Origin: a virus
Taxonomy: Duplodnaviria; Caudoviricetes
Length of the DNA: 64,000 nt
IMG/VR virus record: IMGVR_UViG_3300032218_003059
Coordinates: 22,242 to 86,241 of that record
Direction: 5' to 3' (one strand)
Position 1 is the stretch's first letter, and each line of letters starts with the position of its first letter. The position numbers were made by a program, and so were the translations under genes. Positions 1-62,043 of the stretch are shown piece after piece. A model generated the notes under the pieces. That model did no database searches and had not been told where the DNA came from. It worked only from the letters and a program-made list of their open reading frames with translations.

Positions 1-2
1 TT

Positions 3-1534: not shown

Positions 1535-1543
1535 GGGATAAAA

Positions 1544-3017: not shown

Positions 3018-3019
3018 TT

Positions 3020-15131: not shown

Positions 15132-18100
15132 ATGTCTAATGAAAATGTAGTAATGAATTTAACCGCTAATGCGGATTTTTCTAATCTAGTAACAAGCGTT
15201 AATAGAGTTACTGCCTCACTTGCAAAAATGCAAGAGCAAATTGGTGCAAGCAATAGAATTTTAACTGGACAAATTGCAGCAACTAATAAAGCATTTTCTG
15301 ATACATTACGACAAACAGGACAATTTGGTACACACTTTGTAACCTTAAATGATGATGTTGCAAAATTTGGCAATCAATTAGATAAAGGTCAATTAAAGCT
15401 TAGAGATTATTACGGTGCATGGCAACAGCATGCAAAAACGTCTGGCGGATTAGTTAGAGACCTAGCAGCACAGCAAGTACAATTACAGAATGCTATATTG
15501 CAACCCTTGGGCAAAAATGCTCAAGGGCTAATGCAATTTAATGTACAGGTTCCAAAAGGCTTAGATGTTGTAAAAAATAAAACAGCTCTAGCATCTCAAG
15601 AGCTAAAGATCATGAATAAGGTTATGCAAGAAGGCGCTAATCAGATGATTAACTGGGGTAAAAATACTCAGTGGGCAGGTCGTCAATTAACAGTAGGATT
15701 AACAATACCATTAGCAGCATTTGGCGCAGCAGCAGCAAAAGCATTTAGAGAAGCAGATGCAGAACTAGTTCGTTTAACAAAAGTTTATGGTGGAGTAGCT
15801 GCAACATCTCAAGCAGACCTTAGTAAAATTAGAAAAGAAGTGTCTGCAACTGCAACTAGTTTAGCAAAACAATATGGTGCTTCATATAAAGATACTATTT
15901 CATTAGCTGCAGATTTAGCTGCTACTGGAAAAGAAGGAAATGATTTATTAAAAGCTACGGCACAAGCAACAAGACTTATGGTTCTTGGTGAAGTAGATAG
16001 ACAACAAGCAATGAAAACAACATTAACATTGCAAAATACTTTCAAAGAAAATACCAGCCAATTAGCAGAATCTATAAATTTTCTTAACGCAGTTGAAAAC
16101 CAAACTTCCCTTACACTTCAAGATTTAACTGAAGCAATTCCAAAAGCTGGTCCAGTAATAAAAGCACTTGGTGGAAGTGTAAAAGATTTAGCCCTTTATT
16201 TAACAGCAATGAAAGAAGGAGGAATTGGCGCAGCAGAAGGAGCAAATGCAATTAAATCAGCTTTTGCTTCTCTTATTAATCCAACAGCTAAAGCTACAAA
16301 TTTATTTAAGAGCTTTGGAATAGATTTACAAGGAATGGTTAAAAAGAATACAGGCAATACAACTGCCATGATTCTTGATTTACAATCTGCATTAAATAAA
16401 TTAGATCCTTTATCAAAATCTAAAGCAATTGAACAACTTTTTGGTAAATTTCAATTTGCTAGAATGACAGCGCTTATTGATAATTTAGGAAAACAGGGAT
16501 CACAATCATTAAGGGTATTAGATTTATTAAAACAATCAACAGGAGACATTGCAGCGATTGCAGACCGAGAATTAAAACAGGTTACCGAATCAGCCTCTGG
16601 TAAATATAAAAGGGCTGTAGAAGGCCTTAAAGCCGATCTAGCAGGCATTGGAGATCAGTTCTTAAAGATACAAACTTTCTTTATTAATGTAACAGATAAA
16701 ATTATTAGATTTGTAAATATATTGCCTGGACCAGTAAAAACAATTCTTACTTTGTTAACTGGATTAACTGCAATTGCAGGTCCTCTTATTATGCTTGTTG
16801 GTGTAATGGCAAACTTTATTGGATATATAATAAAAGGAGCATTTCATTTTAAAGCATTATTTAAATCAGGGGAAGGCTGGAGAATGCTTACTCCAGAGAT
16901 CCTTGCAGCTCAAAAAGCTGGATCTTTAATTGAAAAAACATTTTATAGCGATGCAAAAGCAGCACTATCTTTAGCTGAAGCTTTATCAGTATTAGAAGGT
17001 GGATATTCATCATTACAATCAAAGATGAACGCAGGTGCAATAACAGTACAGCCTGCAATATCTACAATTGCAGGCTCACCGATTTTAGCAGGAACTGGAG
17101 CGGGATCAAGAGTAGTTGATCCTAGAAATCCATTAGTAGGACAACAGGGAACTAGAGCATCTGCACATATTAACCCATTACGTGGAAGAACACAAGAACA
17201 AATTGCAGCATCTACAATATTTGGATTTGTTCCAGGCCCAATTCCAGTAAATAATGCACTTAAAGATACTCCACAAATGTATGCCAATGGAGATCTTCCT
17301 AATATACCAGGGCTTACAACTTCACCAAGTAAGCATGGTCCAGTTTCTTCTGGAATAGTTGCATCAGAAGCAACAAAATTTCAAACTTTAATGGGCACAA
17401 TGTCAATGATGAGCAAAACAGAAGTTGCAGCAATGAAAAAAGAAATTCAAACTACTGGAACAGTAAGTACAGAATTTATGACAGCATATTCTTCATTATT
17501 GCCAGAAATTACGTCTATATCTCAGAAAGCAGTAACTTCTTCAGCAGCAATTGTTTCTCAAGTTCAATCTGGAGAAATGCAATTATCTGCAGCTAAAGAA
17601 AAATTAATTCAGCTTAATTATGAAATTGAAGCAGCGATGGGTGCTGCAACTCAAGGTGTTGCAGCCTCACTTGGAAGAACTGCTAATTTAACAACAGTTC
17701 CAGGAATTGATCAGCCAGTAATTGATCCAAAAGGTAAGTCTAATATGAGACAGCTATTTGGAAAAGGAAATGCTTCATGGATGGACAAACTTGCAGGGGT
17801 ATTTGGAATTAAAACTTGGGGAGCAAGTTATTCAACACATACAACAATACCAAAAAGATTAAATTCAGGTGGAGCAGTTTATAATCCAAATAAAGATGGA
17901 AATATTGTTCCTGGAGACACATCAATAAATTATGATACAGTTCCAGCAATGCTACAGTCTGGCGGTTTTATATTAAATCAAACAGCATCAAAAAACAATC
18001 CAGATCTAGTACAATTAGCTAAAAACAAATATGCATCTGGCGGATCAGTTGTACCAGCATTATTAACTGCAGGAGAAACTTATTTTCCTCCTGAATTAGC

Positions 18101-21100
18101 ATCTCAAATGATGCCAACACTTAATATTGCAAATAGTGGAACAAAAGTTCAATTAAGAGCATTAGGTGGTTTAATATCACCAAAAAAAGGAAACTACGGT
18201 TTAATTCCTTCAGCTTCAATTGTAGAAAAAATGATAGCTTCATTGGCTAAAAATGAATATGCAGCAAGATGGTTAAAAGATTATAATTCTAAACCATATG
18301 CATCAAATGGAGTTATAAGAGGTTCTGCAGAAAGCATTTATAAACTACTTGGTATTACACCTAAAGATAATGAATCATTTAATCAATTTGGTCATATGAT
18401 CAGAACTTCAAAAACAAAAACTTCAGTCATTCCTGGTTTTGTTGCTAAACCCCCTACTGCTGTTTATGGAAAAAAAGCTGATTTTATTGGCTTTAATAAA
18501 TCTCTTAGTGGAAATGGAATATCAGATAAAAATATTCGTAAGTTTATAGAAAGTTTATTAGCTGGAGGCAGTGGATCAATAACTGGATCATCTTCTCAGT
18601 TTGTTGAAGCACTTACAAAGAATAATATTTTAGATAATGTTATAGCTAAAGAAATTAATCAAAAAATACAATCTGAATATGTAAGAGAATTATTTAGAAT
18701 GAAAAGAAGAGGGGTTACAGTAACAGATGAAAATAACCCATACTTTAATGTTTCTAATTCTATAATAAAACAATATTCTGAAAAAGTTCCACATTTAGAT
18801 AATTTATGGAACCAGTTTAATTTAAAAAATTCGGCAGTAAATCCACATTATTTATCTGAAATGAATAGCCCTGCAAAACGTGGCCCTGGAAGTATTGGTG
18901 TAAATGATATAACTTTAAGCAATCCAGCTAATGGAATGGGAATTAATGTTGGCAAATTAATTGGTTCTGAAGGTACAGCAGTGTATCATTCAAATAATCC
19001 AGTATGGCAAGAGTCATTGCTTCCAAAATCAAGAATGGGAATAATAACAAAAAATTGGCCTAAAAAACAACAATTTTATCCAATGGGAAGACAATATACA
19101 TTAGGTAATCAAGACCCTTTACATGGCCCACTTCAAATTGGTAAGTCCATGCAGATGCAGCATAGTGCTGGATATGATCCATATGCAGCTAAGAGCGTAT
19201 ATTACTCAGACAACTTTGGTAGATTAAATATAATGGATGCATTTCTTACAGGAACACAAAAAGAACGTGGAATGTATGCAACAGCACAATACATGGGCGG
19301 GAACCTTGGAGTAATGTCACAAATGGAGCGTTTAGGCAACCACCCACTTGGACCAATAGCTGCAATGAAATCATTACAAAAGAAATTTACTGGAAAACTT
19401 TATCGTGGAATCATGTTGGGAAAAACTCAAAATGCCGTCCCAGCAGATATAGAAAAAGCAATCATAGAAGCAAGAACTACTGGAAACCTTGAAGGTTTAT
19501 TGGGTAGAGAATTTATAATGAGAAGATCTTCCTGGAGTCAAAAAGAAAATATTGCACAATATTTTTCTCCTGGTCATGGTGTAAATCCAGAATCTATTTT
19601 ATTTGAAGCAAATGTTAAAAATAGAAATGTTTTGCCTTCATCACAACTTTTTCCAAACAAAGCATTTCAAGCCCCTTATGGACAATCATGGAACAAAACA
19701 AAATTTGGTAGCGGAGCGCAATCAGAACAAGAATCAATATTTGGCGGAAAATTTAAAATAGTTGGAATGCAAGGCGGTAAGGTACAGCTTGAAACAGTTG
19801 TTGATGCAGCTCGTGAAATGGGTGGGCCAGTAAATTCTGGAAGACCTTACCTTGTTGGAGAAAAAGGTCCAGAGCTATTTGTTCCAAAACATGATGGTGG
19901 GATAATTTCTCATTACGCACTAGGAGGAATGGTTTCTTCTGGAAAAAATACATATGGTTTAAGTCCAGCAAAAGCAATGGTGGGCAAAAATATTGCGGGA
20001 CTTGCGGCTTGGATACTAGGTCCAATGTTATTGCAAAAAATGGGCGTAAGTTCAGGAATTACAAATGGTTTGATGACAGCTGGCTTTGCAGGTCAAGCAG
20101 CCTATTCAATGCATTCACAATATAAAGCTTTTAAAGGAGCTGGTCAAGGAGCTGAAATAGTTGGCGATGTTGCAAAAGCAGAGGGAGCAGTAAGCAAACT
20201 TGCACCAAGATTTGCACAGCTTGCTGGAGCCGCTTCAAAAGCAGCAGGCCCAATAGGATTGGTATTTACAGCAATACAAGCCTACAGTTTCTTAGAAGAA
20301 AAAAAACGACATTCTCAAGAAGTATTTGCAACCTCATTTGGACTTTCTGCAAAAGCAGCTAAAGAAGCTGGAATACAGATACAAAATCTTGACGCTCAAT
20401 TAAAAGCTTCATCAGATGCAGCGGGAGCAACTAAAACAAAAGCAGCATTATTATTTTCACAAGATAGCGCTGGAATCAAAGGCTTATCGTTAACAGTAGG
20501 ACAGCTTAAATCACTTGAAACATCAGTAAAGAAAACAATGCCTACATATATGGAAGCATTTAAAAAAATGACTGGAAAAGAAATTCTTACAGGTGCAGCT
20601 AATATCAAAGCGCAATGGGTGGCAATGGGAATGAGCATACAAGATGCAAATTCTAAAATATACACACTTGTTAAATTAACTCATGGCTCACAAGCTGCAT
20701 TAAATGCAATAACATCTAGCGCATTTACAAAAATTACAGATAAAGCATCTGCTTCAGAATATGCAATAAAACTTGTTGGGCAAGCAATTAAAAATATTAA
20801 TAATGTTGGTGCAGCTGGAGCTGCAAATGCATTAGATACTTTCTTTCAAATTCAAACAGCAAAACTACAAGCACTTCAACAAAAAGCAGCAAAAGATGGT
20901 AAAGGTACACCTTACAGCAGTTCATACTCAGATACAATGTCTAGCTATACAAAAAGTGGTTATGGCGATATTAAAATAACAAGAGATATAATAACAGAGC
21001 TTTCAAAAACTCAACCCATACTTGCAAGCATACTTAATGCTACAGATACAATTGGCTCATCTTTAAGTAAATGGATAATTGCATCAAGCGGCTCAATAAC

Positions 21101-22700
21101 TAATCTTAGCAAAATTTCTACACTTACAGCAGGTCAAGCAAATACAGTTGCTCAAGCAATAGTTGCAGTTCAAGATGGAGCAAACAAAGCATTATCTAAC
21201 GACAAGCTTGCAGGAGCTGCAGAAAAAAGAATAATAACTACTCAAGCCGCTTTAAATAAAGCAAGTGTGGCATCTGCAGGAATGACAGTTGTAGACCAAA
21301 TATCTTCTAAAAAAAGAATTAAATATTTAGAAGATGAAATTAAAAAAATTAATGAAGCAGCTTCAGCTCGCAAAAAAGCCATGGAGCAACAACAGTTAGA
21401 TGCAGATACTTTAACTCAAATACAAAAGAAACAATTGGAGTACCAGCAAGCCCTTGCTTCTGGAGATCAGTCTGCTGCAGCTCAAGCTCAACTAGATATA
21501 CAACAGCTTTCACAAAATAGGCAAACAGACACTGCAAAAAATTCAATAGACATTGCTGCAGCAAATAAAACTGGTCCTTTACAACAAGAGATAGATGCCA
21601 TTAACGCTTCTCTCACCGCATCGGCAGATGCACAAACATTAGCTGCAGATTCAATGACTAATCTTTCAAAAAGTTTAGATGATCTAATATCTAAAGATTT
21701 ATCACTTAAATCCTCTTTGCAAAAAGCTATTGAAGATAAAAGAATTTTTGGTACAGATTCTAAAACATTTAAAGAAGATATTAAAGTTATGCTAGATGAC
21801 TATGCAGCATTAACTGGACTAAAAAAATCAACTTCTGGAGTTTATACGGATGCAAAAGGAAATGTCATAACAGCAGAAGGATTATATGCTTCATTAGAAA
21901 AAGCAACGCTAGATAATATCAATGTTGCTGGGAAAACAGTAATTGTAACAGCTGCTGGAGAAATATTAACTGGTAAAAATTTAACGGGTGGAGATCCTTT
22001 AATAGGACTTCCAGCAAAACAAAAAGCTGCAATTACAGCAAACGAAAAAAAACCTTTGGATCAACAAGATCCAAATATTCCACATCCAACAGCAGTTGGT
22101 AAAAATGGTCCTATAACTGGAATGCCAAAACCAGGACTTAAAAATAAAAACCTTGGTCCAGCTACAGGCGCAGAACCAAAAGCACAAACAATAGGGGACT
22201 ATATATATGCTGGAAATGGAATGGTTGTACTTAAATCAGATCCATCACAAGTTGTAGGTCAGTGGTATACATATACTGCAGCAGGCAGAGTTGCATATGC
22301 TCAAGGAGGATTAGTAAATCATTATGGAAATGGTGGATCAATCAGAGGTCTTGGAACCAGCATATCAGATTCAATTCCTGCATATCTTTCAAATGGAGAG
22401 TATGTAGTAAAAGCAGCTGCTGTTAAAAAATATGGCGTACCTACCTTTGACGCATTAAATTCACAAAAGTTTAATATTCCTTCTGTTGTAAGTAGTTCAA
22501 ATTCCATGTATAATAACAATTCAGCTGGCTCTGTTATCTATTTAACTCAAAATATTACAGCAGCAGATGGAATGGATACAGAATTATTGTCAATGAGAAT
22601 TGTTGACATGGCAAAGAAAGCCATAAGCGCAGATGTAAAAGTTTCTTCATCAAAAATGGGTGGGACTAAAGAGTTTGGAAGCAGGGTGATGAACACATGA
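15132..22700 (+). CDS. Tape measure protein (2522 aa) with internal accessory domains including an ADP-ribosyltransferase-like domain
   Basis: N-terminal TP901-type TMP core (WAGRQLTVGLT, FLNAVENQT, LFGKFQFAR); position after the chaperones. Confidence 0.95.
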   Translation: MSNENVVMNLTANADFSNLVTSVNRVTASLAKMQEQIGASNRILTGQIAATNKAFSDTLRQTGQFGTHFVTLNDDVAKFGNQLDKGQLKLRDYYGAWQQHAKTSGGLVRDLAAQQVQLQNAILQPLGKNAQGLMQFNVQVPKGLDVVKNKTALASQELKIMNKVMQEGANQMINWGKNTQWAGRQLTVGLTIPLAAFGAAAAKAFREADAELVRLTKVYGGVAATSQADLSKIRKEVSATATSLAKQYGASYKDTISLAADLAATGKEGNDLLKATAQATRLMVLGEVDRQQAMKTTLTLQNTFKENTSQLAESINFLNAVENQTSLTLQDLTEAIPKAGPVIKALGGSVKDLALYLTAMKEGGIGAAEGANAIKSAFASLINPTAKATNLFKSFGIDLQGMVKKNTGNTTAMILDLQSALNKLDPLSKSKAIEQLFGKFQFARMTALIDNLGKQGSQSLRVLDLLKQSTGDIAAIADRELKQVTESASGKYKRAVEGLKADLAGIGDQFLKIQTFFINVTDKIIRFVNILPGPVKTILTLLTGLTAIAGPLIMLVGVMANFIGYIIKGAFHFKALFKSGEGWRMLTPEILAAQKAGSLIEKTFYSDAKAALSLAEALSVLEGGYSSLQSKMNAGAITVQPAISTIAGSPILAGTGAGSRVVDPRNPLVGQQGTRASAHINPLRGRTQEQIAASTIFGFVPGPIPVNNALKDTPQMYANGDLPNIPGLTTSPSKHGPVSSGIVASEATKFQTLMGTMSMMSKTEVAAMKKEIQTTGTVSTEFMTAYSSLLPEITSISQKAVTSSAAIVSQVQSGEMQLSAAKEKLIQLNYEIEAAMGAATQGVAASLGRTANLTTVPGIDQPVIDPKGKSNMRQLFGKGNASWMDKLAGVFGIKTWGASYSTHTTIPKRLNSGGAVYNPNKDGNIVPGDTSINYDTVPAMLQSGGFILNQTASKNNPDLVQLAKNKYASGGSVVPALLTAGETYFPPELASQMMPTLNIANSGTKVQLRALGGLISPKKGNYGLIPSASIVEKMIASLAKNEYAARWLKDYNSKPYASNGVIRGSAESIYKLLGITPKDNESFNQFGHMIRTSKTKTSVIPGFVAKPPTAVYGKKADFIGFNKSLSGNGISDKNIRKFIESLLAGGSGSITGSSSQFVEALTKNNILDNVIAKEINQKIQSEYVRELFRMKRRGVTVTDENNPYFNVSNSIIKQYSEKVPHLDNLWNQFNLKNSAVNPHYLSEMNSPAKRGPGSIGVNDITLSNPANGMGINVGKLIGSEGTAVYHSNNPVWQESLLPKSRMGIITKNWPKKQQFYPMGRQYTLGNQDPLHGPLQIGKSMQMQHSAGYDPYAAKSVYYSDNFGRLNIMDAFLTGTQKERGMYATAQYMGGNLGVMSQMERLGNHPLGPIAAMKSLQKKFTGKLYRGIMLGKTQNAVPADIEKAIIEARTTGNLEGLLGREFIMRRSSWSQKENIAQYFSPGHGVNPESILFEANVKNRNVLPSSQLFPNKAFQAPYGQSWNKTKFGSGAQSEQESIFGGKFKIVGMQGGKVQLETVVDAAREMGGPVNSGRPYLVGEKGPELFVPKHDGGIISHYALGGMVSSGKNTYGLSPAKAMVGKNIAGLAAWILGPMLLQKMGVSSGITNGLMTAGFAGQAAYSMHSQYKAFKGAGQGAEIVGDVAKAEGAVSKLAPRFAQLAGAASKAAGPIGLVFTAIQAYSFLEEKKRHSQEVFATSFGLSAKAAKEAGIQIQNLDAQLKASSDAAGATKTKAALLFSQDSAGIKGLSLTVGQLKSLETSVKKTMPTYMEAFKKMTGKEILTGAANIKAQWVAMGMSIQDANSKIYTLVKLTHGSQAALNAITSSAFTKITDKASASEYAIKLVGQAIKNINNVGAAGAANALDTFFQIQTAKLQALQQKAAKDGKGTPYSSSYSDTMSSYTKSGYGDIKITRDIITELSKTQPILASILNATDTIGSSLSKWIIASSGSITNLSKISTLTAGQANTVAQAIVAVQDGANKALSNDKLAGAAEKRIITTQAALNKASVASAGMTVVDQISSKKRIKYLEDEIKKINEAASARKKAMEQQQLDADTLTQIQKKQLEYQQALASGDQSAAAQAQLDIQQLSQNRQTDTAKNSIDIAAANKTGPLQQEIDAINASLTASADAQTLAADSMTNLSKSLDDLISKDLSLKSSLQKAIEDKRIFGTDSKTFKEDIKVMLDDYAALTGLKKSTSGVYTDAKGNVITAEGLYASLEKATLDNINVAGKTVIVTAAGEILTGKNLTGGDPLIGLPAKQKAAITANEKKPLDQQDPNIPHPTAVGKNGPITGMPKPGLKNKNLGPATGAEPKAQTIGDYIYAGNGMVVLKSDPSQVVGQWYTYTAAGRVAYAQGGLVNHYGNGGSIRGLGTSISDSIPAYLSNGEYVVKAAAVKKYGVPTFDALNSQKFNIPSVVSSSNSMYNNNSAGSVIYLTQNITAADGMDTELLSMRIVDMAKKAISADVKVSSSKMGGTKEFGSRVMNT

Positions 22701-30597: not shown

Positions 30598-33500
30598 ATG
30601 GCCAACAATTCAAGCATATACAATGGATCATCCTGGGTTAAATTAAAAGCAATAAAAATTTATAATGGCGGATGGCAGACAGTTAAAAAAGGTTTTATTT
30701 ATACTGGAACAGCATGGGCTAGATTTTGGCCATCAGCTGGACCATATACAACAACATCTCCAAGTATACGAATAGACTCATATACTGGAAAATCTGTTGG
30801 CTCTGTAATTCAAATGGGCCCAAGACTAAGCAGCATAGAAGACAATACTCCGCCACTTACAATTCCAGATGGATTATCTGGTGCTACATATTTGTGGGGG
30901 CAAGATGGTGTTTGGGCAAATAATACTAATGCTGTAATTAATAGATATTTTTATTACAATTCATCAAATGATTTTACTAATGCATCTGCAATAAATGGTG
31001 TAACTGATAAGCTATCAAATACTAGCGGAACAATAGATTCATATGACGCAAAATATTTATGGTATTACGTTACACAAACTACAGATGCAATGGGAGAGGA
31101 CCAAAGCGAGTCATTGTATTTAATTAAACAAAGGCCAGCACCACCAATATCTTTTTTAATAGATACCTCTACAGATCCAACAGTTGGCAAACCAGTAACA
31201 GTTAACTATTCTTTAAACACGGATTGGTATAGAAATGCAAAACTTAGTTTAAGCTATATAGAATGGTTTGCAGAAACTACATTAAATCCAACATACTCAT
31301 CTCCAGCCCAAACAGATTATTTGTCTGCAAATAGCGGTTCAAAAACATTTACTCCAACAGAAGCAGAAAAAGATAAGTATATATTTGCAAGAATAACAAT
31401 AGCAAATTCATACTCAGATTATTATGGAAGTTCTTATGTAAGAACAGCGGAAGACTATAATATTAAAAAGGTTGGCGCAGCGCAGCTCGCACCTAACTCA
31501 GGAACTGTATCAGTATCTCCATCAACTGGAACCGCTGGAACTACAACATATATTCCTATACCAGCAGGATGGAAGGGTCCTCCTGATATATTTACCTACA
31601 CCTATTCATGGAGAATATTAAAGCCAAACTTACAATATCAAGAAGTAGGAACAGGATCGACATTTGCTCCAGCGTTAAACTTCAATACTGCGTATCCAAA
31701 CTTTGAAACTCGCTTATTTTGGACAGTATCAAATGGAATAGCTCCAGATGCAACTGGTAGTACAGGATTTACTGTAAATAATGCATTAATTACAAGAACA
31801 CTTTCGTTTAGCGCTAATGGAGGCACAGGTGCTCCTGCAGCACAAACTGGTACAGACAATGGATCTGGAGCAACCATTACAATAACAAACTCAATTCCAA
31901 CACGAGACGGGTACAGATTTTTATATTGGAATACTTCTCCATCAGACATGGGAGGAACAACATATGCACCTGGAAATAGTATTACTCTTAATACAGATGT
32001 AACTCTTTACGCAATGTGGAGTCTAATTTTAGTTGCTCCATACGGCGGAAGCACATCAGTTGATCCAACTTCTGGAGTATCTGGAACTCTATTTAGAGCA
32101 AGTACAAGCGGCTGGTCTGGCACTCCAAATTCATTTACCTATTCTTTTTCCTGGCAAGGCCTGTCAACATCAAACTACAATTATGTAGAACTAGGAACAG
32201 GATCTACATTTTATTCTTTTGGAATAAATCTAAACACCTACCTTGCATTTAGAGTTGTTGCAACTGCAACAAATGCCGCTGGATCTAGCTCAGCTCCTGC
32301 AGATTTTTCAATAACAATTCCATCATATACTAGAACACTTTCCTTTAGCGCAAACGGTGGAGTAAGCGCACCAGCAGCACAAACTGGCACAGACAATGGA
32401 TCTGGAGCAACCATTACAATTACTACATCCACTCCAACTCGGTCTGGGTACAGATTTTTATATTGGAATACTTCTCCATCAGACATGGGAGGAACAACAT
32501 ATAGTCCTGGAAATAATATTACTATAAGTTCAGATGTGACTCTATATGCAATATGGAGCCTGGTCCTTGTTCCGCCAAGTGGTGGGAGCACATCAGTTTC
32601 TCCAACTTCTGGAACCGTTGGTACAACATATACAGTAAGCACCTCTGGTTGGAGTGGAACGCCAAATTCATTTACTTATGCATATTCCTGGCAAGGTTTA
32701 TCGACTACGGGATACAATTATGTACAACTAGGAACAGGATCTACATTTAATTCTTCTGGAATAAACGTGGCAAACTACCTTGATTTCAGGGTTGTAGCAA
32801 CAATTACAAATGCTGCTGGTTCTGTTCAAGATACAGCATACTTCTCAGTAACAGCTGCTATAAATACAATTGCAACAATTGCTACACAGAATACAATTGC
32901 AACAATTGCTACACAGAATACAATTGCAACTCAGAATACAATTGCTACACAGAATACAATTGCAACTCAAAATACAATTGCTACACAGAATACAATTGCT
33001 ACACAGAATACAATTGCTACAATTGCTACACAGAATACAATTGCTACAATTGCTACACAGAACACAATTGCTACAATTGCTACACAGAACACAATTGCTA
33101 CAATTGCTACAATTGCTACACAGAATACAATTGCAACTCAAAATACAATTGCTACACAGAATACAATTGCTACAATTGCTACACAGAATACAATTGCTAC
33201 AATTGCAACTCAGAATACAATTGCTACAGGTGGAGGAGGTTGCTTTGTTTACGGCACTGAAATTCAAATGGCAGACGGAAGCTGGAAGAATATGGAAGAC
33301 CTATATATTGGAGATCAAGTTATGGGTATAGATATTCCTACAGTCCCTTATGAGGATAGTATGGGATTTGACTATATTCCAACATGGACATCTACAGATG
33401 TTTCTGGTACAATAAAATCTGTAGCTACTGTTATAAATGTAGATAACAGATCATTTGATAGCTATTATTTAATTAATAATCAAGTAAAGGTTACATATGA

Positions 33501-33729
33501 GCATAACGTATTGGTTCAACAAGATGGAATATGGAAATTTATCATGGTTGAAGATATTAATGTTGGAGACAATATAATGAACGAAAACCTTGAAATAGTT
33601 CCAGTTTTATCAAAAGAATTAATAAATGAAACAGTAAATACTACATCAATAAATATTGACGATATTGATGTTTATACCGTAAGGGGCATGGTTGCCCACA
33701 ATATAACAAGTAAGGCGGGGGCCAATTGA
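30598..33729 (+). CDS. Putative receptor-binding/fibre protein with duplicated Ig-like/InlB-B-type repeats, a TIA/TQN repeat and a C-terminal Hint domain
   Basis: N-terminal IYNGSSWVK..GFIYTGTAW adaptor; LSFSANGG..GYRFLYWNT..TLYAMW repeats; CFVYGT..TYEH..VAHN. Confidence 0.75.
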   Translation: MANNSSIYNGSSWVKLKAIKIYNGGWQTVKKGFIYTGTAWARFWPSAGPYTTTSPSIRIDSYTGKSVGSVIQMGPRLSSIEDNTPPLTIPDGLSGATYLWGQDGVWANNTNAVINRYFYYNSSNDFTNASAINGVTDKLSNTSGTIDSYDAKYLWYYVTQTTDAMGEDQSESLYLIKQRPAPPISFLIDTSTDPTVGKPVTVNYSLNTDWYRNAKLSLSYIEWFAETTLNPTYSSPAQTDYLSANSGSKTFTPTEAEKDKYIFARITIANSYSDYYGSSYVRTAEDYNIKKVGAAQLAPNSGTVSVSPSTGTAGTTTYIPIPAGWKGPPDIFTYTYSWRILKPNLQYQEVGTGSTFAPALNFNTAYPNFETRLFWTVSNGIAPDATGSTGFTVNNALITRTLSFSANGGTGAPAAQTGTDNGSGATITITNSIPTRDGYRFLYWNTSPSDMGGTTYAPGNSITLNTDVTLYAMWSLILVAPYGGSTSVDPTSGVSGTLFRASTSGWSGTPNSFTYSFSWQGLSTSNYNYVELGTGSTFYSFGINLNTYLAFRVVATATNAAGSSSAPADFSITIPSYTRTLSFSANGGVSAPAAQTGTDNGSGATITITTSTPTRSGYRFLYWNTSPSDMGGTTYSPGNNITISSDVTLYAIWSLVLVPPSGGSTSVSPTSGTVGTTYTVSTSGWSGTPNSFTYAYSWQGLSTTGYNYVQLGTGSTFNSSGINVANYLDFRVVATITNAAGSVQDTAYFSVTAAINTIATIATQNTIATIATQNTIATQNTIATQNTIATQNTIATQNTIATQNTIATIATQNTIATIATQNTIATIATQNTIATIATIATQNTIATQNTIATQNTIATIATQNTIATIATQNTIATGGGGCFVYGTEIQMADGSWKNMEDLYIGDQVMGIDIPTVPYEDSMGFDYIPTWTSTDVSGTIKSVATVINVDNRSFDSYYLINNQVKVTYEHNVLVQQDGIWKFIMVEDINVGDNIMNENLEIVPVLSKELINETVNTTSINIDDIDVYTVRGMVAHNITSKAGAN
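31792..32860 (+). repeat. Tandem duplication of a ~537-bp (179-aa) module
   Basis: Copies start at 31792 and 32329 and share an identical stretch of about 57 nt (gggtacagat...aacatat). Confidence 0.9.
32866..33228 (+). repeat. Two-unit 9-bp tandem repeat encoding 40 Thr-x-x triplets (25 TIA, 15 TQN)
   Basis: Units ACAATTGCW and ACWCARAAY read directly from the sequence. Confidence 0.97.
33241..33702 (+). other. Hint (intein-like/BIL) domain
   Basis: Block A CFVYGTEIQMADG, block B TYEH, terminal HN followed by Ile. Confidence 0.85.
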
Positions 33730-34325
33730 ATTCGCCCAGTAATATGATAAAACAAGTACTTAGCGATAAATTAGTAATATATCAAAATGCTATACCAAAC
33801 CCAAAAGAACTTATAAAAGAGTTTGAAAACACTTTAACAGAATTTAATCAGTCATGGAAAAAATCAGTTATAAATGATTTTGAGTATAATAGCGATCTAA
33901 GATCGTGCACAATATTCTCACTTTTTGTTAATGACTCTGATGATGCAGAATGGGCTAAAGCAAAAGTAAGCTTAAATCAAAAAATTAATAAATTTGTTTC
34001 CGAAGCATTTTTAGACTATTGCAAAACTTATGAGTACAAGGTAAAAAATAAAGAGCCTTGGGAAATATGTAGATATGAAGAAACTCAAAAACTAGTTTGG
34101 CATACAGACGATGGGCCAACACACCCATGCGATGTATCTTTTGTAATTTATTTTAATGATGATTACGAGGGCGGAGAAATTCAATTTAAAGAGCATTTAG
34201 ATGGTTATCCTTATAAGCCACCAGCTGGCAGCATAATAATATTTCCATCAAAATCAACACACATTCATAGGGTGATACCAATTACAAAAGGAATAAAGTA
34301 TGCTGCAATTAGCTTCGCCAAATAA
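33726..34325 (+). CDS. 2OG-Fe(II) oxygenase, P4H-like
   Basis: HTD...YFNDDYEGGEI...HRV...GIKY. Confidence 0.88.
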   Translation: MNSPSNMIKQVLSDKLVIYQNAIPNPKELIKEFENTLTEFNQSWKKSVINDFEYNSDLRSCTIFSLFVNDSDDAEWAKAKVSLNQKINKFVSEAFLDYCKTYEYKVKNKEPWEICRYEETQKLVWHTDDGPTHPCDVSFVIYFNDDYEGGEIQFKEHLDGYPYKPPAGSIIIFPSKSTHIHRVIPITKGIKYAAISFAK

Positions 34326-34902
34326 AATATACGAAGGAATTTTGGTTTACAATAATTCTAACGGAGCTGATATTCTTTTACAAAGCATTGAAGATCTTTT
34401 AACAAACTCTACTGATGCAAGATGGAGTCCTTCTAGAATTATAAAGTCTAAAGAAGAAGGTTATGTCGTAGATAAATCTATAAGAGATAATTTATATTTT
34501 TGGCTAAACTACAGTTTAGATTATGAAAAAGAAACAAAGTCAAAAATGATGAAGATTAGCTCTATGATAGACACTGCAATTATTCCATCATTAAATGACT
34601 ATCAAAATAAATACAGTGTTCAAATTAAAACCAGAGATCCATATGAGCTTTTAAAGTACTATGAAAACAATCATCTATCCTCTCATACAGATGATGGCGG
34701 AGCCAACCACTCTAGAGTATCTTTGTTATTTTATATAAACGATGATTACGAGGGCGGAGACATAGTGTTTGATTATTTAAATATATCATATTCTCCTAAT
34801 ATAGGAGACATAATAATATTCCCTTCTTCGTACATATATAGACATCACGTAAATAAGGTTACGAAAGGTATCCGTTACTGCATTGCGGATTTTATGGCAT
34901 AA
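34300..34902 (+). CDS. 2OG-Fe(II) oxygenase, P4H-like
   Basis: HTD...YINDDYEGG...HHV...GIRY. Confidence 0.88.
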   Translation: MLQLASPNKIYEGILVYNNSNGADILLQSIEDLLTNSTDARWSPSRIIKSKEEGYVVDKSIRDNLYFWLNYSLDYEKETKSKMMKISSMIDTAIIPSLNDYQNKYSVQIKTRDPYELLKYYENNHLSSHTDDGGANHSRVSLLFYINDDYEGGDIVFDYLNISYSPNIGDIIIFPSSYIYRHHVNKVTKGIRYCIADFMA

Positions 34903-35441
34903 TGAAAAGTAGAAAGATTTTCCCAGGCGTATTTGCCTATTCTGATTTTTTTGATGATCCTATGGAAATTTTTAGCAATGTGGAAGACATGGGTGGGTGG
35001 CACCCAGCAGAAGCTGGTGCATATGGCGAAGGCCCTTCTATAGTCGAGGAGAGAAGACGTGGGCTAATGTATAATCTACAAAGAGATCCCAATGTAAAAA
35101 AAATAACTGCAATGTCATTAGAGGCAATTAAACATTATAAATCTTTTTATGGATTAAATTTAAAAAATCTAGAGGGCTGGTGCCTACTAAAGTATAGAGA
35201 AGGTGATTTTTTTTCTGCACATACAGATGACTCTCACGACTTCCCTAGACAAATATCTATGGTTTACTACGCAAATGATGACTACGAAGGAGGTGAACTA
35301 GAGTTTATATTTTTTAATAATTTAAAGATTAAGCCAAACGCTGGCGAGCTAGTTATATTTCCATCTAACTACTTATTTGTTCATAAGGTAAATCCAATAA
35401 CCAAGGGTGAAAAATATGCTGCAACATCGTTTGCCTATTGA
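34902..35441 (+). CDS. 2OG-Fe(II) oxygenase, P4H-like
   Basis: HTD...YANDDYEGGEL...HKV...GEKY. Confidence 0.88.
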   Translation: MKSRKIFPGVFAYSDFFDDPMEIFSNVEDMGGWHPAEAGAYGEGPSIVEERRRGLMYNLQRDPNVKKITAMSLEAIKHYKSFYGLNLKNLEGWCLLKYREGDFFSAHTDDSHDFPRQISMVYYANDDYEGGELEFIFFNNLKIKPNAGELVIFPSNYLFVHKVNPITKGEKYAATSFAY

Positions 35442-36399
35442 TAAAAAAATATTTATCTCAATACCTTCATATGAAGATGAGCTATTGTTAGAAACAATTA
35501 ATGACGCATTATTAAAGGCAAAGAATGCTTCAAGGCTTACATTTGGCGTTGCCCTGCAATATAAAAAAATTGATAAACCAGACCTATCTTTTTTAGGAAA
35601 TCAATTAAAATTAATAGAATATGATGTTGACAGCAGGCCAGGGATAATCGAGATAAGAAAAAATATAGCGGATTTAATTGAAGACGAGGAGTACTTTCTT
35701 GGCATAGATGCTCACACCCTTTTTGCCCAAAACTGGGATCAACAATATATAGATGATCACCAGATGCTAATTGAAAAAAATGGTAATAGTAAAGTTTGCA
35801 TTGCATCTAGAATTAATGGATCTGAGTCTGATTTTAAAAAAGATTTATATTCAGAATATTTAGATACTAGATGGATTTTAGATATAAACAAAAATAACGT
35901 ATATGAAACTTGGTGGGACTGGCCAGTAGATGTCAAAAATAGGCTTTATGATACTCCAGAGTATGTAAAAAGATACTTTGTTTCTGCAAACAACTGGTTT
36001 ACAACTTCAGAGTTTTTTATAAACAACCTGTTTTGGTGTTTCAATAAAACGGTATATGAAGAACCACAGATATCCCTATCATTATTTTTAAATAACTACG
36101 ATGTATACCTGCCAACAAGCAAGGTGCTTGTCATAGCTAATCCAAAATCACAGACAACAAATAGGGAAAATAAAATTCATTGGCAAAACCCTAGTCATAA
36201 AAATTGGAATCACGACAGCATAGAGGTAGTCAGAGAAGTATTTAAGTTATTCTATACTGGCAAAAGCAATATATTTAGTCTGAATAGGCCAGATGATATA
36301 TATAAATGGTGGAATGCAATCGGCTTATACGAAAAAGCCAAAGAGGTATCCGATAGGCTTAAAACTCTGCATTTAGATAGGACATACTACTTAGACTAG
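35407..36399 (+). CDS. GT60/Gnt1-like (GlcNAc family) glycosyltransferase
   Basis: IFISIPSYED N-terminus and YFLGIDAHTLFAQNWD (DxH metal motif) resemble Skp1-hydroxyproline GlcNAc transferase. Confidence 0.75.
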   Translation: MKNMLQHRLPIDKKIFISIPSYEDELLLETINDALLKAKNASRLTFGVALQYKKIDKPDLSFLGNQLKLIEYDVDSRPGIIEIRKNIADLIEDEEYFLGIDAHTLFAQNWDQQYIDDHQMLIEKNGNSKVCIASRINGSESDFKKDLYSEYLDTRWILDINKNNVYETWWDWPVDVKNRLYDTPEYVKRYFVSANNWFTTSEFFINNLFWCFNKTVYEEPQISLSLFLNNYDVYLPTSKVLVIANPKSQTTNRENKIHWQNPSHKNWNHDSIEVVREVFKLFYTGKSNIFSLNRPDDIYKWWNAIGLYEKAKEVSDRLKTLHLDRTYYLD

Positions 36400-36459: not shown

Positions 36460-36669
36460 ATGCTAACAAATGAAGAAAAGATGAATATGATAGACCAGCA
36501 TAAGAAGAACATTGAGTTCGCCCTGTATGGTCTTAAGTTAGACCTGCTAGAAATAAAGGCTACTACTCCAACAGATGCTGAAGCAATTAATTCAGTGCAA
36601 TCTAGAATTGATATGCTAGATGCAAAGACTGCAGCTCTAACCGAAGAAGCAGCAACCCTAACAGAATAG
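36460..36669 (+). CDS. Small coiled-coil hypothetical protein
   Basis: AGGAGG RBS; TGGTATAAT at 36430-36438. Confidence 0.7.
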   Translation: MLTNEEKMNMIDQHKKNIEFALYGLKLDLLEIKATTPTDAEAINSVQSRIDMLDAKTAALTEEAATLTE

Positions 36670-36676
36670 AGTTAAA

Positions 36677-36856
36677 ATGGATAAAGCAGAACTAGTAGTT
36701 GCTGCTCTACAACAAAGAATTGGCGAGCTCGTAACAAACTACGAGACGCAAATTGCTATGCTTCGTGCAGAGATCACGATATTAGTCGAAGAAAGGCAAA
36801 GCAAAGATGAAGCTATTCAAGCATACTCCGAGCACCTTGATAACATTACCAACTAA
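36677..36856 (+). CDS. Small coiled-coil hypothetical protein (59 aa, not in the ORF track)
   Basis: Manual translation MDKAELVVAALQQRIGELVTNYETQIAMLRAEI... Confidence 0.7.
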   Translation: MDKAELVVAALQQRIGELVTNYETQIAMLRAEITILVEERQSKDEAIQAYSEHLDNITN

Positions 36857-37202
36857 TTTCCCATCAGGAATTGCTGTTAAAACAGATAAGGCAGTATATT
36901 GGATTAAAGATGGTAAGCGATTTAAGCTTATTTCAGATAGGGCTGCAAAATCCTGGGCATTCACAACCGTAAACGCAACTGAAGCATCTATGCCAAACAC
37001 TAAAGTTGCTGGCAGCCTTGGATTTAGAGACGGTACATTGATAAAGAACATAGCAGATGGTAAAATGTATTTGATATCTCAAAATAAAAAAAGGCATATT
37101 GTCAGCCCAGACGTATTTGATAAGTTTGGTTTAGATAGAAGCAAAATGATAGAGGTAAGTGCAGCAGAAATTGCAGCACATGAACTAGGAGAAGATTTAT
37201 AA
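36807..37202 (+). CDS. Conserved hypothetical protein with two internal repeats
   Basis: VYWIKDGKRFKLIS / MYLISQNKKRHIVS repeat. Confidence 0.65.
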   Translation: MKLFKHTPSTLITLPTNFPSGIAVKTDKAVYWIKDGKRFKLISDRAAKSWAFTTVNATEASMPNTKVAGSLGFRDGTLIKNIADGKMYLISQNKKRHIVSPDVFDKFGLDRSKMIEVSAAEIAAHELGEDL

Positions 37203-37630
37203 TGGCAGACTTTACACCAGTAGTATTTAATGATGGGCAGCCATTAGATTTAGATCAGCTTAGAAAAATGGCAACAAACCTTCAGGCAATGTATACTCAA
37301 ATAAACAATGTCTATGCAGCATTAACAAATGGTCAAAGTGGCAACACTGCAACTCTTCCAATAGTAGATGCAAACTACGTAACATTTTCAGATGGATTAA
37401 AAAAAGGAACAAACGGTCCCAAAAGCTTTGCTTTTTCTGTTAAATTCCCAGGCAACAATCCATATGTAATTGCCACGATCTCAACTAATCTAGGATCAAC
37501 TTTGGCCTCAGCATACGTAACAACAGATGCAAATAATAAATATAATGTGTATATTAACTCAAGCGCAGTAGTAACATCTCCAGTAACAGTAAACTGGATG
37601 GCGTTTGCTCCAAAAATTATTACTGTATAG
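37202..37630 (+). CDS. Hypothetical virion protein with gp53/H-lectin-like C-terminus
   Basis: FNDGQPLDLDQL..; FAFSVKFP..PYVIAT..VNWMAF. Confidence 0.45.
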   Translation: MADFTPVVFNDGQPLDLDQLRKMATNLQAMYTQINNVYAALTNGQSGNTATLPIVDANYVTFSDGLKKGTNGPKSFAFSVKFPGNNPYVIATISTNLGSTLASAYVTTDANNKYNVYINSSAVVTSPVTVNWMAFAPKIITV

Positions 37631-37672: not shown

Positions 37673-37697
37673 AAAGTCACGTACCCGTGACTTTTTT
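37673..37697 (+). terminator. Rho-independent terminator-like hairpin
   Basis: AAAGTCACG-TACC-CGTGACTTT plus T run. Confidence 0.75.
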
Positions 37698-49486: not shown

Positions 49487-49791
49487 TGTCTGAAAGATCA
49501 GAGGTTAAAAGAGATAGGGCTAAGGCTCAAAAAAATTCTGGACGTGGCGACTATCAAAAGGGTGACGCACAGTGGAATAAGTTCCTTGTGGACTACAAAG
49601 AGGCTTCAAGATCTTTTACTTTAAACAAAGATGTATGGGCAAAAATATGCACAGATACCTTTAAAGTAAATAGGGATATGCACCCAGCTTTAAAAATTAT
49701 TATAGGAACGGAATCCAAGGTAAGACTTGGTATAATAGAATGGTCAATTTTAGAAGAACTAATCGAATTCTGGGAGGAAAACAATGGATAA
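49486..49791 (+). CDS. PD-(D/E)XK resolvase-like nuclease
   Basis: NSGRG..KGD..FLVDYK. Confidence 0.65.
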   Translation: MSERSEVKRDRAKAQKNSGRGDYQKGDAQWNKFLVDYKEASRSFTLNKDVWAKICTDTFKVNRDMHPALKIIIGTESKVRLGIIEWSILEELIEFWEENNG

Positions 49792-50755
49792 ATATCAAGT
49801 AATGCCGCAGGTTGTAGTATATAAAGATATGTTTACAAAGGAAGACCTTCAAAGGTTTTATAGCCTTATGGATTTTTATGAAAGCGACACTAGTCAGTTT
49901 GATGTTGTAAATGAAGAAGATTCTACAAGGGGCGACAATCATGGCACAGCCCCAGTTGAAGAAGATAATGATTCCCCAATAAATCTTTGGGTTCCTTGGC
50001 ATACATTTGGCAAGAAAACTTTTTATAATTTTAAACAAAAACCAGAAAACCTTGCTGACAAAAATTTAATATTTCTTTATGAATTCAGAGATAAACTTTC
50101 TAATGTATTCCGTTCTGTATTTAAAGATTATATTAATGAATGGTCTAAGTCTGGTTATTGGCCAGACTATATTACTAGCTGGGAATTAGATCAGCCAGAA
50201 ATTAGTCGCTTTTATTCTTCAGTAATTGAAGTTTTAAAGCATGATATACATCCAGAAAAAGAATTGGCTATTACATTTCACACTGATGCACATAAGCATA
50301 GAGTTGGTCAGCCAAGAGGACAGCAAATTATTACAATTACTATTTATGTAAATGATGACTATGAAGGTGGAGAAGTTGAATTTTTAAATGAAATTGATGA
50401 AATTCCTTCAGTAATAACCTATAAGCCAAAAGCTGGAGACGTTACTGCATTCCCTTCTGGAATTCCTTACTGGCACTCAGCTAAAGCTGTAACAGATGGA
50501 AACAAAAAACTTTTTGTTAGAATGTTTGCAATTTGGCATTATGAAGGATCTCAGGAGTGGGCAGACGGAATTAAAAAATATGGTGAAGATGAGTGGAATA
50601 AAATTGTAGACGAAGATGTTCAAAAGAAAGTAGACACTGGAATTTATGATCGTGAAGTTAGAATTGAAGGCACTAATTGGAAAGATGTCAATCCAGCAAT
50701 TAAAGTCGAAGTTTCAAAAGAAAACCACACATACGTAGACGGAAGGCTGATGTGA
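49784..50755 (+). CDS. 2OG-Fe(II) oxygenase, P4H-like
   Basis: HTD...YVNDDYEGGEV...HSA...GNK. Confidence 0.85.
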   Translation: MDKYQVMPQVVVYKDMFTKEDLQRFYSLMDFYESDTSQFDVVNEEDSTRGDNHGTAPVEEDNDSPINLWVPWHTFGKKTFYNFKQKPENLADKNLIFLYEFRDKLSNVFRSVFKDYINEWSKSGYWPDYITSWELDQPEISRFYSSVIEVLKHDIHPEKELAITFHTDAHKHRVGQPRGQQIITITIYVNDDYEGGEVEFLNEIDEIPSVITYKPKAGDVTAFPSGIPYWHSAKAVTDGNKKLFVRMFAIWHYEGSQEWADGIKKYGEDEWNKIVDEDVQKKVDTGIYDREVRIEGTNWKDVNPAIKVEVSKENHTYVDGRLM

Positions 50756-58827: not shown

Positions 58828-59364
58828 ATGAAAACAATTGGCGATAAGCTAGGTAACTTTGCCGTTACTGGAGTAAAGCCTGGAGCTCTCACGTACGACG
58901 ATAGCTCTTTTGAAACAATCACGCAAGAATCTTTTCCAGGCAAATGGAAAATTATTGTATTCTATCCAAAAGATTTTACATTTGTATGTCCAACAGAAAT
59001 TGTTGCATATGATAAATTATCTAGTGACTTTAATGATCGTGATGCAGTTCTTATGACTGGATCTGTAGATAATGAATTTTGTAAAATTGCTTGGCGCAAT
59101 GCTCATGAAGACCTCAAGAAAACAAATTCATGGTCTTTTGCAGATACTGCACATCAGCTTGCCAATGACTTGGGTGTTCATGCTCCATCTGGAGTTACAT
59201 ATCGTGCAACATTTATTGTTGATCCAGAAAATATTATTCAGCATATCACAGTAAATAATCTAGATGTAGGTAGAAATGCCGATGAAGCACTTCGTGTTTT
59301 AGATGCACTTCAAACTGGAGAGCTTTGTGCATGCAATAGACCTTTGGGCGGAGAAACTATTTAA
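58828..59364 (+). CDS. ahpC: Peroxiredoxin AhpC (actinobacterial type)
   Basis: FYPKDFTFVCPTE and GELCACN. Confidence 0.93.
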   Translation: MKTIGDKLGNFAVTGVKPGALTYDDSSFETITQESFPGKWKIIVFYPKDFTFVCPTEIVAYDKLSSDFNDRDAVLMTGSVDNEFCKIAWRNAHEDLKKTNSWSFADTAHQLANDLGVHAPSGVTYRATFIVDPENIIQHITVNNLDVGRNADEALRVLDALQTGELCACNRPLGGETI

Positions 59365-59879
59365 TGTTGTGGGCTGATCAATTAAAGGATTCTCTTCCAG
59401 AGTATGCAAAAGATATCAAGCTTAATTTAGATGCTGTTATAAATAGATCAACGATTGATCCTGAACAAGCAACATACCTATCAATTGCAGCGGCATTTGC
59501 AACTGGTAACTCCAAGCTACTTTCATTTATTTTAGCTAATGGTCCAGACGACAATGTTGAAAAAAATGCAGCATTAACTGCCGCATCGATTATGGCTCAA
59601 AATAATATTTGGTACCCATACATTGAAATGGCTGGAGATTCGAACCTTGCAGGACTTCCAGCTCAATTAAGAATGAACTCCATTGCTTCACACGGAGGAA
59701 CTACAAAAGCAAAGTTTGAAGCATATTCACTTGTGGCTTCAATTATTGGCAAATGCCACTTTTGTGTTGCAGCACACTATGCTACACTTAAAGAAGAAGG
59801 ATATACTGTAGAGCAGTTGCGTGATATCGGAAGAATTGCAGCAACAATTAATGCAGTATCAAAAATTCTTTCTGCATAA
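59364..59879 (+). CDS. ahpD: Alkylhydroperoxidase reductase AhpD
   Basis: LPEYAKDIKLNL, MAQNNIWY, GKCHFCVAAH (CxxC..H); coupled to ahpC. Confidence 0.9.
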   Translation: MLWADQLKDSLPEYAKDIKLNLDAVINRSTIDPEQATYLSIAAAFATGNSKLLSFILANGPDDNVEKNAALTAASIMAQNNIWYPYIEMAGDSNLAGLPAQLRMNSIASHGGTTKAKFEAYSLVASIIGKCHFCVAAHYATLKEEGYTVEQLRDIGRIAATINAVSKILSA

Positions 59880-60459: not shown

Positions 60460-60522
60460 CTCAGCTGGTAGAGCAATCGCCTTTTAAGCGATGGGTCGCA
60501 GGATCGAGACCTGCTGGGGACA
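60450..60522 (+). tRNA. tRNA-Lys(TTT)
   Basis: GTCTCTA/TGGGGAC acceptor; ATCGC-CTTTTAA-GCGAT; atypical T-loop ATCGAGA. Confidence 0.85.
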
Positions 60523-60547
60523 CTTAGTAGAAATGGTACAATTAATT

Positions 60548-61606: not shown

Positions 61607-62043
61607 TAGTAAGGCTGCGAGAGTGGCAGGCCAACTCATTTGTGCTATATACAACAGCACACGGATTTCATTGGAATGTAGAGGGTGCTTTATTTACTCA
61701 GTACCACGCATTTTTTGAAGAAATTTATACAGATGTTTATGGCACAATTGATACCATCGCAGAGTGGCAAAGAAAGTTTCAGTCACCAGCACCATTTACT
61801 CTTCAAGAAATGTCAGATTTAAATACTTATGGAGATGTGACAGCTGGATCTAACTCTCCTTTAATAATGTCACAGGTTCTTTTAAACATGATTGAAAAAA
61901 TGATTGAAGATGTAAAAAATTTATTTGATGTTGCCACCTCTTCAAGAGAACAAGGCCTTGCAAACTTCTGTGCGGACAGACAGGATAAACTTCAATTTTG
62001 GTCATGGTGGCTAAGATCCTCATTGAAATCAACTATTAGCTAA
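61594..62043 (+). CDS. dps: Dps/ferritin-like protein
   Basis: AHGFHWNVEG..YHAFFEEIY..DTIAE ferroxidase motif. Confidence 0.85.
   Translation: MEELIVRLREWQANSFVLYTTAHGFHWNVEGALFTQYHAFFEEIYTDVYGTIDTIAEWQRKFQSPAPFTLQEMSDLNTYGDVTAGSNSPLIMSQVLLNMIEKMIEDVKNLFDVATSSREQGLANFCADRQDKLQFWSWWLRSSLKSTIS

Follow-up and report, generated by a model that had tools for sequence, protein, structure and literature searches.

A candidate fibre-tailoring cassette of P4H-superfamily oxygenases and a GT60-type glycosyltransferase behind a Hint-ended tail-fibre gene in an actinophage-related virus

Described systems and comparison with the fibre cassette

Hydroxylation of a protein followed by its glycosylation is exemplified by the Skp1 pathway of Dictyostelium and Toxoplasma, in which the prolyl 4-hydroxylase (P4H) PhyA acts before Gnt1, a glycosyltransferase (GT) of CAZy family GT60, and by the mimivirus protein L230, a bifunctional enzyme whose lysyl hydroxylase and glycosyltransferase activities modify collagen-like proteins of the virus. 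GT60 enzymes of trypanosomes and Dictyostelium are alpha-N-acetylglucosamine (GlcNAc) transferases, family GT27 comprises the polypeptide N-acetylgalactosamine (GalNAc) transferases (ppGalNAc-Ts), the fish antifreeze glycoprotein (AFGP) is built as (Ala-Ala-Thr)n, and GTs of mycobacteriophages decorate the C-termini of capsid and tail-tube proteins. Here, we describe a cassette of five genes in a 64,000-nt stretch of viral DNA (the window), which corresponds to bases 22242-86241 of the linear, 86,241-bp and approximately 80% complete IMG/VR record IMGVR_UViG_3300032218_003059. The cassette encodes a distal tail fibre with a Thr-x-x array and a C-terminal Hint domain, three P4H-superfamily oxygenases designated OxA, OxB and OxC, and a GT60-type transferase (Table 1). 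As judged from sequence, the pairing of a repeat with such enzymes, which is kept in related phages, suggests that the phage decorates its own fibre.

The cassette resembles the Skp1 pathway in that P4H-superfamily oxygenases and a GT of the Pfam family PF11397, which was built around the Skp1 GlcNAc-transferase, are encoded together with a presumed hydroxylate-then-glycosylate logic, and in that fusions of PF13640 and PF11397 domains are found at the related viral locus L091 and in a Chlorophyta cluster. It differs by an array devoid of Pro, by three paralogous oxygenases in place of one, and by the presumed substrate, where dozens of repeats on a virion fibre replace a single site on a cytoplasmic protein. 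As with LH3 and mimivirus L230, both of which are among the weak PDB sequence matches of the oxygenases, a triplet-repeat structural protein, a 2-oxoglutarate (2OG) hydroxylase and a GT are encoded by the virus; unlike in these systems, the repeats are T-x-x and not G-x-y and contain no Lys, the GT belongs to another family, the host is bacterial and the fibre has a C-terminal Hint domain. Mucin-type initiators share the GT-A fold, the DxH motif and, as ppGalNAc-Ts, the best Foldseek matches, and AFGP shares the placement of Thr at every third residue. However, the phage array has neither Pro nor Ser, the GT carries no lectin domain and most related fibres with Thr triplets have no GT60. The mycobacteriophage systems are likewise those of actinophage-type viruses with GTs beside structural genes, where the phage's own virion proteins are modified, but their GTs are of another family, they have no oxygenases, Hint domain or triplet array, and the target here would be the distal fibre stalk. 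The Hint domain is similar to bacterial intein-like (BIL) domains in its Cys1, TxxH and terminal HN motifs, in the absence of a nucleophile at position +1 and in its best structural matches (2lwy and 6y75), to hedgehog in its Gly-Cys junction, and to self-cleaving chaperone domains of the Peptidase_S74 type in its position at the fibre C-terminus, whereas in contrast to hedgehog and its like only eight residues follow it, with no sterol-recognition or toxin module. Searches of the literature turned up no paper on GT60 in phages, tail fibres with Hint domains, fibre-linked oxygenases, phage BIL domains or phage hydroxyproline glycosylation.

The fibre, its Hint domain and the adjoining enzymes

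A preliminary description, drawn from the letters of the sequence alone, had claimed a fibre ending in 41 periodic Thr and a Hint domain, and the in-frame triplet count bears this out, with 25 TIA, 15 TQN and one TGG. Thr accounts for 33% of the array with a strict period of three, and Ser and Pro do not occur in its 123 residues. Hence, prolyl hydroxylation is impossible there, and the Skp1 analogy, with GlcNAc on hydroxyproline (Hyp), fails for the array if taken literally; the fibre body outside the array contains 46 Pro, and prolyl hydroxylation may take place there. At the DNA level, the array is an imperfect 18/27-bp tandem array (Tandem Repeats Finder), and synonymous codons in such arrays differ from locus to locus, which argues for selection on the array peptide and not on the DNA repeat. 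A collagen-like triple helix was rejected, as the three array positions are Thr, Ile/Gln and Ala/Asn without Gly at every third residue. The fibre body is internally duplicated (residues approximately 299-573 and 481-752 are 62% identical), and the N-terminal anchor region is common to the fibre of the relative L016. A search of IMG/VR with the DNA pattern for ([T/I]-I-A)5, which is too strict for TIN/TQN arrays, returned 65 stretches, 64 of them short microsatellite-like open reading frames (ORFs) or non-coding and one a real fibre (L054, identical with L090).

The assignment of the Hint domain holds on several lines. The Cys1, TYEH (block B) and HN motifs are invariant in four homologues, and the isolated domain scores 32.8 bits against PF05203 (cut-off 32.1), with weaker matches to five other Hint-clan families. 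In the PDB, a four-sequence profile matches PI-SceI (3e-4) and the BIL domain 2lwy (1e-3). The AlphaFold2 (AF2) model, of moderate confidence, has a BIL-like fold with 2lwy and 6y75 as best matches, followed by inteins and hedgehog; Foldseek aligned it to 2lwy with E 2.4e-7 and TM 0.62/0.72, at a predicted local distance difference test (pLDDT) of only 69. Since no nucleophile is present at +1, where Ile is found and only eight residues follow, a classical splicing intein was rejected; in related Hint fibres this residue is Q, A, N, L, F, I or Y, and S in one. By analogy with BIL and hedgehog domains, N-terminal cleavage at the Gly-Cys junction would be the chemistry to expect. A profile search of 1.84 billion representatives (E <= 1e-10) matched 653 proteins, nearly all of which end in the Hint domain with a stretch of Gly in front of it; such a Gly run ahead of Cys1 is a general trait of this Hint family. 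Metagenomic members often carry aromatic/Pro-rich or other short repeats before the Hint domain (YYAPP, SFPP, FGFTP, GVSPV).

All three oxygenases belong to the P4H superfamily, as had been proposed, with PF13640 scores of 48.1, 45.0 and 60.5 bits for OxA, OxB and OxC, respectively (cut-off 27), and an intact HxD...H triad in each, the distal His being followed approximately 10 residues on by K/R-Y, with the basic residue that this family uses to bind 2OG. OxB alone also matches PF12851 (Tet_JBP) at 15.4 bits (E 0.011), which is under the cut-off of 34.9, and a TET/JBP identity was rejected on this score.

The GT60 call was likewise confirmed by family search, in which the transferase scores 50.3 bits against PF11397 (cut-off 21) over profile positions approximately 2-271 of 352, and this is a protein-glycosylating family, not a DNA- or lipid-modifying one. 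The IDAH motif and the later His258 are invariant in 14 aligned sequences. The AF2 model (pLDDT 84.7) has a GT-A fold whose best Foldseek match is GalNAc-T2 (E 1e-10) and whose longest VIA alignment is to mGalNAc-T1 (Z 18.3, 263 aligned residues). The GT2 enzymes SpsA, TarP and TarS reach Z 17.5-18.1 by VIA-align, level with GT27, and therefore the fold gives no acceptor. Searches of the PDB with the sequence and its profile gave no meaningful match, and no solved GT60 structure was matched by sequence. A search of IMG/VR for related loci with the single GT sequence returned none, and tblastn with the GT gave one weak jumbo-phage match only. The nearest Atlas clusters carry PF11397 and are mostly from Uroviricota, in which PF11397 proteins are common.

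Related loci and genomic setting

Relatives were traced from the Hint domain to 19 IMG/VR loci at which it is at least 50% identical, with 11 distinct fibres of 535-1533 aa whose bodies vary and whose repeats are of the types (TIN)n, (TID)n, (TVN)n, (TIA)26, GGSTNS, VAQNTQ and PPAFFSPP. An OxA orthologue (41-52% identical) starts within approximately 50 nt of the fibre stop codon at 18 of the 19 loci, that is, behind 10 of the 11 distinct fibres. The 7 kb upstream of these fibres gave no oxygenase match, and among control loci only 1 of 33 had one. The link between oxygenase and fibre is very consistent and is the core of the system. At L091, 1.6 kb after the Hint fibre, a 498-aa fusion protein matches both PF11397 (110 bits) and PF13640 (69 bits), an architecture that the Chlorophyta (green-algal) cluster of the Atlas shares; another oxygenase gene lies directly 3' of this fusion gene.

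Tracing from the GT yielded 12 relatives (41-70% identical, all PF11397), and inspection of their contigs revealed two architectures. In type A, the GT60 gene follows a long fibre and all three oxygenase genes, whereas in type B a short fibronectin type III (FN3) protein with a Cys-rich tail instead of the Hint domain precedes OxB, OxC and GT60 by two to four genes, and the locus lies ahead of the terminase gene, at another genome position than in type A, on contigs that carry WhiB. In a maximum-likelihood tree, the OxB and OxC clades extend across both types with supports of 98/97 and 92/90, respectively, and hence both are orthologous in the two architectures. The OxB clade occurs only where GT60 is present (7 of 7 lineages), the OxC clade adjoins TIA/IIA arrays in both architectures, and OxA accompanies Hint-type fibres exclusively, being absent wherever the fibre is of the Cys-rich-tail type. 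Thus distributed, the paralogues appear to track the type of repeat, OxA accompanying T-x-N/D Hint fibres and OxB/OxC with GT60 accompanying TIA arrays. GT60 is an add-on that moves with OxB/OxC and TIA-type arrays and not with Thr content. The co-occurrence of GT60 with Thr-repeat fibres raised in the preliminary description thus stands for (T/I)-I-A arrays, in approximately seven lineages and two unrelated protein architectures, and fails for Thr repeats generally.

The Cys-rich tails of type B contain GPSGCCGG-like or GGGCDC motifs (L009:6092-7066, L013:6031-7017 and L018:1-123, frame 3). Collagen III trimers are locked by a cystine knot, and by analogy these tails, which resemble it, may fix the C-terminus of the array without a Hint domain. 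In most relatives, a small Cys-rich protein (DUF6171, with borderline Pfam scores) is encoded just after an oxygenase; it is absent from the cassette of the window.

Within the window, all genes are on the + strand and G+C is approximately 35%. The locus is preceded, in order, by portal, protease and capsid-like genes, the tape measure gene, and minor tail genes with a tail protein, and it is followed by genes for a metallophosphoesterase, DnaB, primase, single-stranded DNA-binding protein and a DnaE-type polymerase that is 57% identical to Streptomyces phage polymerases. Because of this gene order on both sides and the polymerase identity, we regard the virus as siphovirus-like and related to actinophages, and the locus as the distal end of its tail module. 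The link to actinophages is based on the DnaE identity and on the WhiB genes of two related contigs, L009 and L013; in the 86-kb record itself, no WhiB gene was found. A DNA-level search of INPHARED phages with the locus gave no match. The tight coupling initially noted for the cassette is upheld, as its five genes abut or overlap with no convincing terminator before 37673. The first good terminator-like hairpin lies at 37673-37694, in a promoter/terminator scan that scored no better than shuffles. Four small ORFs downstream, which the closest relatives, L022 and L007/L008, also carry at this place, are probably in the same transcription unit.

In all, PF13640 is matched 14 times at four sites of the 86-kb record, which for a phage genome of such length is a very large expansion of paralogues. 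One of these matches is a lone gene inside the replication region. Just upstream of the window, a second repeat-plus-Hint protein with an (FFxPPG)14 repeat is followed, at window positions 1-4307, by two oxygenases that are sister to the OxC clade, then by a DUF6065 pair and another four oxygenases. The same genome thus repeats the theme of fibre repeat, Hint domain and oxygenase, which counts in favour of the phage tailoring its own fibre. Ahead of the (FFxPPG)14 protein, a 1032-aa fibre carrying an Mtd_N domain is encoded. A second PF11397 gene has as neighbours genes of AhpC/TSA (58828-59364), the CMD family (59364-59879) and HNH, and further ferritin/Dps (61594-62043), short-chain dehydrogenase/reductase (62043-62717) and CHAP lysin (62731-63255) genes.

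Table 1. Features of the fibre cassette, its surroundings and related loci (window positions unless a contig is named)
Feature	Position	Strand	Remarks
Distal tail-fibre gene	30598..33729	+	1043 aa; last gene of tail module
Two PF09479 Flg_new (Listeria-Bacteroides repeat) domains	31795..32559	+	aa 400-475 and 579-654; E 3.4e-23
T-x-x array	32866..33234	+	aa 757-879; 41 consecutive in-frame triplets
Gly run GGGG directly before Cys1	33229..33240	+	predicted Gly-Cys self-cleavage junction
Hint (BIL-like) autoprocessing domain	33241..33702	+	Cys882; TYEH aa 966; HN aa 1034-1035
Tail after Hint	33703-33726	+	Ile at +1; 8 residues in all
OxA, PF13640 2OG-Fe(II) oxygenase	33726..34325	+	HTD at H126; likely ATG 33744
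OxB, PF13640 oxygenase	34300..34902	+	HTD at H129
OxC, PF13640 oxygenase	34902..35441	+	HTD at H107
GT60-type (PF11397) GT-A glycosyltransferase	35407..36399	+	likely ATG 35416 (327 aa)
DxH motif (IDAH)	35707-35715	+	D101/H103
Four small ORFs	36460..37630	+	after the cassette
Tape measure gene	15132-22700		2522 aa
Lone PF13640 gene	49784-50755		323 aa; replication region
Second PF11397 (GT60-type) gene	60491-61606		86 bits; 18% identical to first
Second repeat-plus-Hint protein	L006:4622-6004 (genome 19622-21004)		460 aa; FN3-like domains, (FFxPPG)14, divergent Cys-initiated Hint
GT60-oxygenase fusion	L091:9103-10599		after Hint fibre
Type A locus	window, L022, L016		long fibre with TIA/TQN or TIA/TIN array, Gly run, Hint; then OxA, OxB, OxC, GT60
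Type B fibre	L009-L015, L018-L020		short FN3 protein, (TIA/IIA)n array, Cys-rich tail instead of Hint
Type B downstream genes	as type B fibre		two small proteins, OxB, OxC, 83-aa protein, fourth oxygenase OxD, GT60, JmjC/cupin-like
DUF6171-like small protein	L091:8241-8603		
DUF6171-like small protein	L097:8365-8601		
DUF6171-like small protein	L090:4273-4605		
DUF6171-like small protein	L009:7512-7754		
DUF6171-like small protein	L008:1373-1645		

Proposed tailoring of the fibre, alternatives and significance

In the reading that we favour, and to which we give about an even chance, the phage hydroxylates and then glycosylates the stalk of its own fibre, with self-cleavage by the Hint domain. 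The substrate would be the C-terminal low-complexity stalk of the distal fibre, whose modifying enzymes are encoded next door. In a first step, the P4H-superfamily oxygenases would add hydroxyl groups to residues other than proline, within the T-x-x array or next to it. Candidate residues, all of them guesses, would be Asn/Asp for OxA, because the only one of the related Hint fibres without OxA (at L096) has repeats lacking both Thr and Asn, and an aliphatic residue such as Ile in the TIA motif for OxB/OxC, on account of the distribution of these paralogues. In a second step, the GT60-type transferase would add a sugar, probably an N-acetylhexosamine (HexNAc) from a UDP-sugar, for which the new hydroxyl is the favoured acceptor over bare Thr by analogy with hydroxylate-then-glycosylate pathways; this order is weakly preferred to direct glycosylation of Thr since GT60 follows OxB/OxC and not Thr content. 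Finally, an N-S acyl shift at the junction of GGGG and Cys882 would let the Hint domain remove itself, so that the mature fibre would end in the modified stalk.

Several observations weigh against this reading. Linkage of genes is not proof of a substrate relationship, and as many of the supporting loci are from related phages, the gene order partly reflects shared ancestry. No oxygenase gene lies within 7 kb of the L096 fibre, whose repeats are of the PPAFFSPP type. GT60 is found at only one of the Hint-traced loci, L091, and is absent behind 10 of the 11 distinct fibres, mostly T-x-x arrays, so that the transferase does not follow Thr repeats as such; even at L090, where the (TIA)26 fibre is accompanied by OxA and OxC, no GT60 is found in 15.9 kb. 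Conversely, the 67%-identical GT of L007/L008 lies after a Ser/Thr/Tyr-rich fibre with no array, Hint domain or oxygenase nearby, and the second GT60 gene of the genome is far from any fibre and has no adjoining oxygenase. The nearest solved relatives of the oxygenases, the PiuC-type PKHD hydroxylase, B. anthracis P4H and LH3, reveal no substrate, and we know of no testable precedent for an Ile or Asn that is hydroxylated within an array of this kind.

Among the alternatives, the one closest to known mucin and AFGP chemistry is that the 41 array Thr receive alpha-HexNAc directly from the GT60-type enzyme, the oxygenases having separate targets in other residues or proteins. GT60 includes Thr-directed enzymes, Thr occupies every third array position, ppGalNAc-Ts give the best Foldseek matches and the longest VIA alignments of the model, and the L007/L008 orthologue, next to its Ser/Thr/Tyr-rich fibre, manages without an oxygenase nearby. 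We nevertheless regard it as unlikely, as most Thr-triplet Hint fibres, with (TIN)n, (TVN)n or (TIA)26 repeats, have no GT60, the presence of this enzyme follows OxB/OxC and includes a fusion to an oxygenase at L091, and the GT27 matches, being tied with GT2 at Z 17.5-18.1, do not identify the acceptor. A somewhat more doubtful proposal holds the enzymes to be accessory genes of a variable island where the tail module ends, with the host envelope or proteins, small molecules or cellular 2-oxoglutarate as targets. A random island would not be expected to keep the OxA start at the fibre stop for 10 of 11 distinct fibres that differ widely in length and type of repeat, nor to show OxB-OxC-GT60 recurring by TIA/IIA arrays on a different protein at a different genome position. 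The dispersal of the 14 PF13640 matches over four genome places, some away from fibres, and the position of the second GT60 among redox genes would fit it, as would the roles in DNA repair or 2OG control proposed for aquatic-phage 2OG oxygenases (PMC3037559) and the action on DNA or the cell wall proposed for glycosyltransferases of freshwater actinophages (PMC10202952).

The Hint domain of L096 is 56% identical and occurs without OxA, from which it follows that Hint function is not OxA-dependent. This makes it very improbable that OxA modifies the Hint junction or domain and so controls autoprocessing, for example in an oxygen-dependent maturation of the fibre with the repeat as a spacer. Such control would account for the restriction of OxA to Hint-type fibres and for its occurrence with repeats as different as TIN, TIA, GGSTNS and VAQNTQ, but it leaves OxB, OxC and GT60, which also occur without Hint, unexplained. 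Hypermodification of DNA in the manner of TET/JBP oxygenases with a glycosyltransferase is essentially excluded by the family scores: phage systems of TET with GT exist and OxB has its weak Tet_JBP match, but this match reaches 15 bits against a cut-off of 34.9 where PF13640 reaches 45-60 bits, PF11397 is protein-glycosylating, and the enzymes are encoded within the tail operon in tight coupling with the fibre gene. Returning to tailoring of the fibre, a far-reaching version would be a modular system of aquatic phages in which Pro-free T-x-x or (T/I)-I-A arrays on virion fibres are the encoded substrates, P4H paralogues hydroxylate Asn, Asp or aliphatic residues, GT60 acts on the new hydroxyls, the Hint thioester serves, in hedgehog/BUBL-like fashion, to ligate the C-terminal Gly of the stalk to a further molecule or subunit, and the Cys-rich tail is the covalent linker in the Hint-less relatives; as a whole, this would be a long shot.

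To our knowledge, the role of the many 2OG-Fe(II) oxygenase genes of aquatic phages has been open for approximately twenty years. The locus and its relatives offer a concrete and testable alternative, namely that such oxygenases tailor the repeats of the phage's own fibre, with the natural substrate encoded directly upstream. A stalk modified in this way could influence adsorption, stability or recognition, and effects on shielding, host range and grazing, as put forward in the preliminary description, are speculation. If the proposal is true, hydroxylation-linked protein glycosylation, so far a feature of eukaryotes and giant viruses, would be extended to tailed phages, new specificities of 2OG oxygenases for non-proline residues would be added, the Hint domain would serve as a fibre maturation module, and many orphan 2OG oxygenases of aquatic phages would gain a function.

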